Source: Aureispira sp.
Lineage (GTDB): Bacteria; Bacteroidota; Bacteroidia; Chitinophagales; Saprospiraceae
Length of the DNA: 64,000 nucleotides
Reading direction: 5' to 3'
Assembly (NCBI GenBank): GCA_050633105.1
Contig: JBOEFW010000016.1
Location: 160,195 to 224,194 of the forward strand
Part shown: in pieces, positions 56,772-58,542 of the stretch
Position numbering within the stretch: position 1 is the first letter of the stretch
Layout of the letters: every line of letters begins with the position of its first letter
Position numbers and translations under genes: made by a program
Notes under the pieces: model-generated
What the model was told of the DNA's origin: nothing
The model's input: only the letters and a program-made list of their open reading frames with translations
Database searches by the model: none

Positions 56772-56853
56772 TTGTTTTTTTATTAAAAATTTATTATCTT
56801 ACTAAAAAAATTAAATTATAAAAACAATAGTAAGTTTTTCACAAAAAATTAGG

Positions 56854-58542
56854 ATGAAAAGTTATTCAGACAACATGAATGAAATTTCTAACGATGTTTT
56901 ATTTGATGGTTTATTAGGACATGGTCTTTTCGCTAAAAAAATTCCTAACTTCCTTTCCAGTGAACTGTTTTTACATTATTTCAAAGAAGCATATATAAAA
57001 CCTGAAAAACTATTAGATATTTCTCCTTCTCCTAAAGGATACATAAGGTATAATAATATGAGAAATAATAGCACACCTCGTCCTTTAGCTATTCCTGAGC
57101 CCTTTGCTTATGCTCTTTTATCCTATACATTAAAAGAGAATTGGCAAAAGTTGCAGATTCACTTTAACACGATGACTCTCAACAATTCTCACAAAATAAG
57201 TAGAATACATGTAAGAAATAAAAAAGCTCAGAAAGCTATTTTTGAAATGAACTATAAAAATTTTGATTTAGATGGAAATCCAGTAGATGATATTATCATA
57301 GGCAAAAGGTACCAAGTAAATGCAGATATTTCAAAATGTTTTCCTAGTATATATTCTCATGCTACTTCTTGGGCACTCGAAGGAAAATCTAATGCTAAAA
57401 ATAATATTAATAAAAAAGAAGAATGGTATAATAAAATTGATTTCAGTACAAGAAATATCAAATACGGAGAAACTAACGGATTATTAATTGGACCTCATGC
57501 TTCTAACCTTTTATCTGAAATAATACTAACTAGAGTAGATAAGGAACTAAGTGATCAAAAATTCCAATACATAAGAAACATAGATGATTATACGTGCTAT
57601 GTCAGTTCTTATGGAGAAGCTGAAAAATTCCTCCTCACATTATCAAAAGAGCTATCTAAATATGAATTGTCTCTGAATCATAAAAAGTCTGAGATAAAAA
57701 AACTCCCAACTGAAAGTGAAGCATCCTGGGCTAATCAATTAAGAAGATATATAAACCATGAAATAAGTTATTTTTTTACTAAAAAAATAATTGAAAAAAA
57801 ACACATTTCAATAAAAAAAATAAATACAATTGAAATTAAAATGTTTTTAGATTTCGTAGTCTCTTTAACTAAAAAGAACAATCAAAACGTATCTATAATC
57901 AACTATGCCATTAAAACGCTATCTAACAAAGAGTTAAGCCACAATGCTCAGATATACTTACTAAAAAAAATTCATCATTTAGTCTTACTTTATCCTTATC
58001 TATGTTCTATTTTGGAAAAACATCTATTTGATGCACATAAAGTAGATCCTTCTTATATAATTCCAATAGCAAAAGATTTATATAAAGAAGGCATCAACAA
58101 CAACAATTATGAAGCATGTTCTTATTCTATATACTGGTCATTGAAATATGGAATTCAATTTGATAATGGATATATAGACCCTTCTAAAAATAACAATACT
58201 TCAGCCTTTTCATATTATTTCAAAGAAGATGCTATTAAATCAGAAGATTGCATATTCCTATTACTTGCATTTTTATATGACAAAAGGCATAAAATACCTG
58301 ACAGACCTAGCTATCAAAAAGAATATAGACAATGTGCTAACCATCTCAAAAAAAATGATTTTGATAAATACTGGCTATTCATCTATGAAGTTCTTTCTGC
58401 TGATTCTCTCCCATTTTTATATAAAAAAATGAAAAACGAAAAAATTTCCTTCGTAGAAGAGCAATTTAATACTACTCCACACGCCCACAATAAGCCACAC
58501 GCAATGCCAACAATTCCTCCTTCAAACGCAGACGAAACTTAG
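56854..58542 (+). CDS. stand-alone reverse transcriptase with helical C-terminal extension (AbiA- or UG/Abi-like defence RT candidate)
   Basis: The RT motifs occur in order:
- RPLAIPEP (aa 76-83)
- motif A: NADISKCFPSIY (D158)
- motif B: GLLIGPHASNLLSE
- motif C: IRNIDDY (D244, D245; nt 57583-57588)
- motif D/E: LSLNHKKSE

A helical tail of about 250 aa follows, containing RQCANH (aa 492-497). No endonuclease or maturase domain is present. The gene is extremely AT-rich compared with both flanks. Confidence 0.8.
   Translation: MKSYSDNMNEISNDVLFDGLLGHGLFAKKIPNFLSSELFLHYFKEAYIKPEKLLDISPSPKGYIRYNNMRNNSTPRPLAIPEPFAYALLSYTLKENWQKLQIHFNTMTLNNSHKISRIHVRNKKAQKAIFEMNYKNFDLDGNPVDDIIIGKRYQVNADISKCFPSIYSHATSWALEGKSNAKNNINKKEEWYNKIDFSTRNIKYGETNGLLIGPHASNLLSEIILTRVDKELSDQKFQYIRNIDDYTCYVSSYGEAEKFLLTLSKELSKYELSLNHKKSEIKKLPTESEASWANQLRRYINHEISYFFTKKIIEKKHISIKKINTIEIKMFLDFVVSLTKKNNQNVSIINYAIKTLSNKELSHNAQIYLLKKIHHLVLLYPYLCSILEKHLFDAHKVDPSYIIPIAKDLYKEGINNNNYEACSYSIYWSLKYGIQFDNGYIDPSKNNNTSAFSYYFKEDAIKSEDCIFLLLAFLYDKRHKIPDRPSYQKEYRQCANHLKKNDFDKYWLFIYEVLSADSLPFLYKKMKNEKISFVEEQFNTTPHAHNKPHAMPTIPPSNADET

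Follow-up and report, generated by a model that had tools for sequence, protein, structure and literature searches.

DRT4 (also called UG15; Gao et al. 2020) is an already characterised antiphage family within class 1 of the UG/Abi reverse transcriptases (RTs). Members are routinely reported in genomes of Bacteroidota, for example in Tenacibaculum (PMC10013915). Other polymerases of the same class, namely AbiK, Abi-P2 and AbiA from Lactococcus and from P2 prophages, synthesise DNA from a protein primer without a template and defend by abortive infection. The tyrosine used for priming belongs to a loop of the fingers in AbiK and Abi-P2, and to the linker in AbiA (PMC12783706). Here we describe an RT gene in a stretch of 64,000 nucleotides from Aureispira sp. 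(GenBank assembly GCA_050633105.1, contig JBOEFW010000016.1, positions 160,195 to 224,194), hereafter the window. The open reading frame (ORF) occupies 56854..58542 on the forward strand and encodes 562 amino acids. Judged by its sequence and predicted fold, the RT belongs to the DRT4 family, as a divergent member from Bacteroidota. We consider it likely that the locus constitutes a horizontally acquired, single-gene DRT4 antiphage system, lodged between two core genes, which encode a TPR lipoprotein and an RluA-type pseudouridine synthase.

The ORF matches Pfam RVT_1 with E = 2e-10, a score that exceeds the gathering threshold, and carries the RT motifs in the expected order: RPLAIPEP at residue 76, ADISKCFPSIY at 157, GLLIGPHASNLLSE at 209, NIDDY at 242 (which includes D244/D245) and LSLNHKKSE at 272. 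Classification was based on the ranking of profile scores together with a fold search. The PADLOC Drt4 profile PDLC02178 is matched end to end, with E = 1.5e-186 and 619.3 bits over residues 1-539 of the protein and positions 2-505 of 506 in the profile. A second Drt4 profile, PDLC03752, gives 521.8 bits, and the runners-up are Drt6 with 244.6 bits, UG30 with 147 and AbiK with 116. The best sequence matches in the PDB are also DRT4/UG15 chains (E = 1.3e-47).

The predicted structure leads to the same family. An AlphaFold monomer model built on 50 homologues has a pLDDT of 81.4 and a pTM of 0.83. Residues 1-285 (56854..57708, forward strand) form the DRT4 RT domain of fingers and palm, as delimited by the RVT_1 match and by residue mapping against E. 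coli DRT4. Residues 286-539 (57709..58470, forward strand) are all-helical, in keeping with the alpha-Rep domain by which class 1 UG/Abi RTs replace the thumb, as defined by AlphaFold and Foldseek; the model is helical from residue 290 to residue 528. The top Foldseek match is the cryo-EM structure of DRT4 (9vdo_A), aligned over the full length in 551 columns with E = 2.6e-23 and a target TM of 0.80. The crystal structure of UG15 (9l9s) is also matched over its full length, and it is followed by DRT6, AbiK, Abi-P2 and AbiA.

These results bear directly on a preliminary description of the locus (the original prediction), which had been drawn from the letters of the DNA and had advised both a profile search and a fold comparison of the C-terminal half. 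It had reported a 562-codon ORF with ordered RT motifs, and all five of the motifs quoted were located. Its assignment to the class of stand-alone UG/Abi defence RTs is upheld by the DRT4 profile and fold matches. The statement that the protein fits no named subgroup must be withdrawn, given full-length matches to DRT4/UG15 profiles (619 and 522 bits) and the best PDB matches in sequence as well as fold. The possibility that it founds a new Bacteroidota lineage fails as well, because at least 119 homologues are 47-52% identical to it and nearly all of the named ones come from Bacteroidota.

The RT gene lies alone in a block of unusual composition. The segment 56772-58471 has a guanine-plus-cytosine (GC) content of 27.0%, the lowest of any 1.7-kb stretch in the window, where the other such stretches have a mean of 38.7%, a standard deviation of 1.8 and a minimum of 34.2. 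This departure (z = -6.6) argues for a foreign origin of the block and agrees with the lone AT-rich segment of about 1.7 kb described originally. GC at third codon positions is 0.21 in the RT gene, compared with 0.35-0.45 in neighbouring genes. On the left, the block adjoins the core gene for the RluA-type pseudouridine synthase (56091..56771, reverse strand; PF00849), which is divergent from the RT gene. On the right is the core gene for the TPR lipoprotein (58472..59512, reverse strand), recognised by TPR Pfam matches and a lipoprotein-like N-terminus; it is convergent with the RT gene and is followed by NadE. This is the arrangement given in the original prediction, and both directly flanking genes are housekeeping genes. 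A very AT-rich spacer of 82 bp (56772..56853) separates the start codons of the RluA and RT genes and makes up the leftmost part of the foreign DNA. It presumably holds the promoters of both genes. A sigma-70 scan returned 17 promoter-like sites where 11.4 were expected, and such a scan is not informative in AT-rich Bacteroidota DNA.

The presence or absence of the gene at this locus, which the original prediction had suggested comparing among related genomes, varies. A scan of genome contigs yielded two syntenic relatives, the metagenome-assembled genomes (MAGs) L002 and L003. Their NadE proteins are 90-91% identical to that of the window, their TPR proteins, each adjoining NadE, are 68-71% identical, and their RluA proteins, which share the same synteny, are 78-80% identical. 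Judged by these flanking genes, the host belongs near Aureispira in the Saprospiraceae. In L003, a Saprospiraceae MAG, the order is NadE, TPR, a 120-bp spacer, RluA and OsmC, with no RT gene, and the site is thus empty. It follows that the RT is the sole gene added between TPR and RluA. The 120-bp spacer bears no evident resemblance, by eye, to the 82-bp spacer of the window. In L002, an uncultured Aureispira sp. MAG (CAYULH010000002.1, 3962-5996), the same junction holds a different cargo of 2.0 kb with a GC content of 34.6%, compared with about 43% in its flanks. This cargo encodes a type II C5-cytosine methyltransferase (Pfam E = 9.4e-59; PADLOC MTase_II E = 5.7e-69) and an ORF of 304 residues. 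The two may form a restriction-modification pair, a label that we keep tentative since the 304-residue partner has no Pfam or PADLOC match. The L002 cargo resembles the RT gene of the window in running antisense to the core genes and in leaving hardly any space next to them: the stop codons of the methyltransferase and TPR genes overlap, and 4 nt separate the start of the 304-residue ORF from that of RluA.

Because the TPR|RluA junction is empty in L003, occupied by a methyltransferase cargo in L002 and occupied by DRT4 in the window, it qualifies as a small variable hotspot. Around the insert we found no integrase, no terminal direct or inverted repeats and no target-site duplications, only AT-rich low-complexity matches. 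The most economical reading is that homologous recombination in the core genes on either side would exchange the cargo. The left boundary of the insertion is not fixed to the base, since the two relatives are too diverged for this (68-80% amino acid identity in the two flanking genes). Metagenome contigs scanned with the TPR protein gave one irrelevant match of 20% identity.

A different origin would make the protein the RT of a mobile retroelement or of another RNA-templated system, such as a group II intron, a retron or a diversity-generating retroelement (DGR), whose RNA partner had been overlooked. This reading is effectively refuted. Group II intron, retron and DGR RTs are confined to the distant tail of the Foldseek list, and the group II intron model TIGR04416 matches weakly, as is expected for any RT palm. 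Its score of 49.8 bits is far under the cut-off of 300, the protein has no maturase or endonuclease domain and its C-terminal half is alpha-Rep. An Rfam scan of 55500-59600 on both strands finds no intron, retron or other RNA match. Template- or variable-repeat (TR/VR)-like, a1/a2-like and msr/msd-type repeats are absent from the locus, where only AT-rich chance repeats occur, and the non-coding DNA that accompanies the RT gene amounts to the 82 bp upstream, with none downstream. A group II intron RT was rejected on the score, the alpha-Rep half and the lack of an intron RNA; retron, DGR and CRISPR-associated RTs were rejected on the Rfam result, the lack of TR/VR repeats and the identity of the neighbours, which are RluA, OsmC, TPR and NadE. 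The exclusions made in the original prediction thus stand: it had seen no group II intron, no retron, no DGR with accessory genes and no cas genes. Together with the empty site in L003, the lack of an Rfam match indicates a single-gene architecture free of non-coding RNA.

The residues on which E. coli DRT4 depends (Wang et al. 2025, PMC12783706) were located here by aligning the protein with 119 homologues. The dNTP-binding residues Arg75, Asn271 and Lys274 correspond to R76, N275 and K278, and the metal-binding residues Asp149 and Asp240/Asp241 correspond to D158 (57325-57327) and D244/D245 (57583-57588). Tyr125, the priming residue, corresponds to Y134 (57253-57255), the predicted priming tyrosine of this enzyme, within EMNYKNF. 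Tyr337, which stacks on the product, corresponds to Y351 in the alpha-Rep domain. Each of these positions is invariant in all 119 homologues. Asn124, a product contact, is N133 here and is asparagine in 111 of the 119. The priming tyrosine, which follows Asn124 in the E. coli enzyme, is reported to be absolutely conserved in 174 DRT4 systems (PMC12783706). At the oligomer interface, E202 is kept as E206. The surrounding loop, K203-G-E-T-N-G209 (residues 204-212; 57463-57489), is almost entirely invariant in the subclade to which this protein belongs and has a pLDDT below 50 in the monomer model. As it aligns with the inter-trimer interface residues E202 and H204 of E. coli DRT4, the loop probably becomes ordered only in the oligomer.

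The E. coli enzyme (PMC12783706) also provides the expected mechanism, in which the hexamer, the untemplated protein-primed synthesis, the trigger and the abortive outcome are all carried over by homology. Subunits composed of RT and alpha-Rep domains would assemble into a hexamer arranged as a dimer of trimers, with the hydroxyl of the palm-domain residue Y134 serving as primer. Without a template or non-coding RNA, the complex would constitutively polymerise single-stranded DNA (ssDNA) of random sequence, which would remain covalently bound to its protein primer. In an uninfected cell, 3'-5' exonucleases of the host would trim this ssDNA and keep it short. During infection, a phage ssDNA-binding protein would shield the 3' ends such that ssDNA accumulates, and the build-up would then bring about cell death or arrest before the phage matures, the outcome known as abortive infection.

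A homologue search returned 1892 proteins at E <= 1e-10. The nearest are 47-52% identical (BLASTP) and mostly 503-507 residues long. The named sources include Chryseobacterium, Myroides, Capnocytophaga, Elizabethkingia, Flavobacterium, Odoribacter and Putridiphycobacter, as well as a single Acinetobacter, and the labels of these homologues, where given, read 'RNA-directed DNA polymerase', 'Reverse transcriptase' or 'hypothetical protein'. The catalytic motif is NIDD rather than the YIDD of E. coli DRT4. YIDD is a feature of the E. coli enzyme and not a criterion for the UG15 group, and the Asp-Asp pair is intact. The window protein owes its extra length to three small insertions, at residues 47-52, 312-320 and 440-454, and to the C-terminal tail described below. 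The last two insertions and the tail are among the segments of low pLDDT and appear as loops or disorder in the model.

Several observations weigh against assigning this protein to DRT4 as a working member. The NCBIfam Drt4 equivalog model NF041749 gives 362.7 bits, below its cut-off of 450, although the match spans the full length (E = 3.5e-108; residues 28-533 on profile positions 21-489 of 489), and identity to the characterised E. coli enzyme is 27-28%. Tyr238, the residue stacked on the product's 3' end, is N242 here (asparagine in 106 of the 119 homologues and tyrosine in three), and Arg301, which contacts the product base at -5, is Y306 (tyrosine in 116 of 119). Two interface residues have changed too: Phe140 at the trimer interface is I149 (isoleucine in 118 of 119) and His204 at the inter-trimer interface is N208 (asparagine in 117 of 119). 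The protein sits on a long branch, averaging 52.5% identity to homologues that share 66.7% among themselves, and it has lost three otherwise invariant residues (D62G, N73S and F302H). Its gene has lost its stop codon and gained a foreign tail of 23 residues, at an end of the protein that is functionally sensitive in UG15, where deletion of 38 C-terminal residues abolishes immunity (PMC9226505). Finally, a terminator scan found no terminator-like structure between the convergent, overlapping RT and TPR genes.

The substitutions at the catalytic site and the interfaces are not peculiar to the window gene: N242, Y306, I149 and N208 are the norms of a Bacteroidota-dominated NIDD subclade. One might suppose that this DRT4-like subclade as a whole has diverged in function, yielding another product (of different length, with a base bias or as a homopolymer) or following a different trigger and effector logic. 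The changes at Tyr238 and Arg301 favour this supposition, as the E. coli enzyme touches its DNA product through each of these residues, and so do the identity of about 27% and the score below the equivalog cut-off. In addition, related class 1 and class 2 DRTs are reported to yield very different products (PMC13213688). Conversely, the priming tyrosine, the catalytic triad, the dNTP-binding residues and the Tyr337 equivalent are invariant, and the fold is matched over its full length. Moreover, DRT6, which is 23% identical to DRT4, uses the same untemplated protein-primed synthesis and the same trigger (PMC12783706), and thus divergence of this order need not change the mechanism. We consider a functionally diverged subclade very unlikely. 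A bolder proposal, which we also regard as improbable but give slightly more credence, holds that the NIDD branch would be a distinct untemplated polymerase, set apart by the composition or length of its product or by a trigger and nuclease circuit in bacteria lacking ExoI, and that the window copy would be a naturally C-terminally extended variant at a TPR|RluA defence hotspot.

The 3' end of the gene can be traced in detail. The C-termini of 84 of the 119 homologues fall at the residue aligned to N539 (ending in EFN), and nearly all fall at positions 538-540. In the window, the AAT codon for N539 ends at 58470; next come one further base (58471) and the TPR stop codon in reverse complement, and the RT frame stays open for another 23 codons on the strand opposite the 3' end of TPR. 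This read-through tail, encoding TTPHAHNKPHAMPTIPPSNADET and then a stop codon (58471..58542, forward strand, the last 72 nt of the ORF), has a GC content of 48.6%, compared with 27.8% in the RT core. The convergent RT and TPR genes overlap by 71 nt. The DNA of the tail is native and lies outside the insertion, since the L003 TPR protein aligns to residue 343 of 346. From the stop position in homologues and the native antisense character of the tail, we place the right edge of the foreign DNA at about 58470/58471 and conclude that the ancestral stop codon of the RT was lost. Contigs of a second assembly, GCA_041156845.1, agree to the base at both insertion junctions, which are therefore not a one-off assembly artefact. 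With this arrangement, the RT and TPR mRNAs would be mutually antisense at their 3' ends.

Such a structure raises the question of whether the homologue is still functional, or was captured with a clipped 3' end and is now drifting, with convergent transcription into TPR interfering with its expression. The lost stop codon, with read-through into antisense native DNA, is what one would expect of an inactive remnant, as are the sensitivity of the UG15 C-terminus, the long branch with its three lost residues and the convergent genes with no terminator between them. Among columns that are at least 95% conserved, the protein keeps 91.5%, compared with a mean of 98.2% in a leave-one-out control; this value nevertheless falls inside the control range, the minimum of which is 89.8%. 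The frame has stayed open over 1.6 kb at 27% GC, where chance stop codons would be frequent, and all catalytic, dNTP-binding and priming residues are kept. The intact 562-codon ORF in such DNA, together with the retention of 57 of 60 invariant columns, shows constraint. The extra residues are placed in predicted loops and in a disordered tail (pLDDT below 50 for residues 543-562), and the folded core is modelled confidently. E. coli DRT4 likewise ends in 34 disordered residues (PMC12783706), and the added tail may therefore be tolerated. We judge loss of function unlikely, though worth some weight, and favour an acquired DRT4 system that is still under constraint.

The foreign origin of this DRT4 gene is also supported by its relatives, which are similarly AT-rich (27-29% GC), and by the methyltransferase cassette at the same junction in L002. 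In Myroides, a homologue of 49% identity lies inside an integrative mobilizable element (contigs L089:1-11701 and L090:3045-11701) that carries a tyrosine integrase, relaxase/NikA, a DnaG-type primase and DUF5906/DUF3853 genes, and an element of this kind could be the vehicle for the subclade. A TIR_2-domain protein is encoded near the DRT4 homologue in L089. In Chryseobacterium, a member of the subclade stands alone between housekeeping genes. No close relative of the window RT was found on sequenced plasmids or phages; the best plasmid match has 28.7% identity, and phage matches are partial, with 23-28%.

The surroundings of the junction are variable as well. A gene of the PD-(D/E)XK 'transposase' family (61283-62158, reverse strand; PF12784, E = 5e-72) lies between NadE and DJ-1/PfpI in the window. 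By tblastn, neither L002 nor L003 has an equivalent next to NadE, and this gene may hence represent a second variable insertion near the RT. On the RluA side, OsmC (55570-56013 in the window, and also present in L003) was not detected by tblastn downstream of RluA in L002, where ORFs of 183 and 145 residues occupy its place (L002:6700-7830). The neighbourhood is thus variable on that side too.

The locus extends DRT4, whose structures and mechanism are already published, to an Aureispira-like Saprospiraceae genome, and in this respect it carries little weight beyond annotation. A literature search for UG15 together with template-independent returned no match. New in detail, but minor, are the long-branch NIDD member, the score below the cut-off, the read-through 3' end and the variable junction. 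The low NCBIfam score may explain the generic labels of the homologues, and the gap in annotation, seen with the one protein scored against NF041749, may span the entire Bacteroidota NIDD subclade. If so, the Drt4 equivalog would miss a large group of proteins, which would continue to be deposited as generic 'RNA-directed DNA polymerase'. The natural changes Tyr238 to Asn and Arg301 to Tyr offer a ready-made test of which product contacts untemplated synthesis needs. The TPR|RluA junction in turn provides an example of a minimal hotspot, which is empty, filled with a methyltransferase cassette or filled with DRT4, and whose cargo is swapped without a recognisable integrase or repeats.

Compared with described systems, the window RT is most remote from AbiK, Abi-P2 and AbiA. 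These are likewise class 1 UG/Abi enzymes composed of an RT and an alpha-Rep domain, but their identity is 13-17% and their profile scores are far lower. DRT6 (UG12; PDB 9wy8) shares the domain organisation and is second best by both profile (245 bits) and fold (E = 1.4e-16). DRT6 itself works as a hexamer with untemplated, protein-primed synthesis; its 245 bits compare with 619 bits for DRT4, and identity in the structural alignment is 20%. The Bacteroidota DRT4 subclade (PDLC02178; examples are in Chryseobacterium, Myroides, Capnocytophaga and Elizabethkingia) falls in the length class of the window RT once the insertions are set aside, and shares its NIDD motif, its conserved residues and its low GC content (27-29%); some of its members also stand alone between housekeeping genes. 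Its members are about 67% identical to one another, whereas the window RT is about 52% identical to them, has insertions of its own and has lost the normal stop position.

Among characterised systems, the closest is E. coli DRT4/UG15 (strain 12-c8-a; PDB 9vdo/9vdv/9ltm/9l9s/21ou; Mestre et al. 2022; Wang et al. 2025). It differs in having YIDD where the window RT has NIDD, and in the residues replaced here by Tyr (Arg301), Ile (Phe140) and Asn (His204). The three loop insertions and the 23-residue read-through tail occur only in the window RT, whose host is a Saprospiraceae bacterium in which equivalents of ExoI or ORF55 are not known. The two are alike in combining fingers and palm with an alpha-Rep domain and no thumb, and in being encoded by a single gene, without non-coding RNA, in variable, horizontally acquired DNA. 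Both possess the priming tyrosine in the palm (Y134 in the window RT), the Asp triad, the dNTP-binding Arg, Asn and Lys residues and the tyrosine equivalent to Tyr337.

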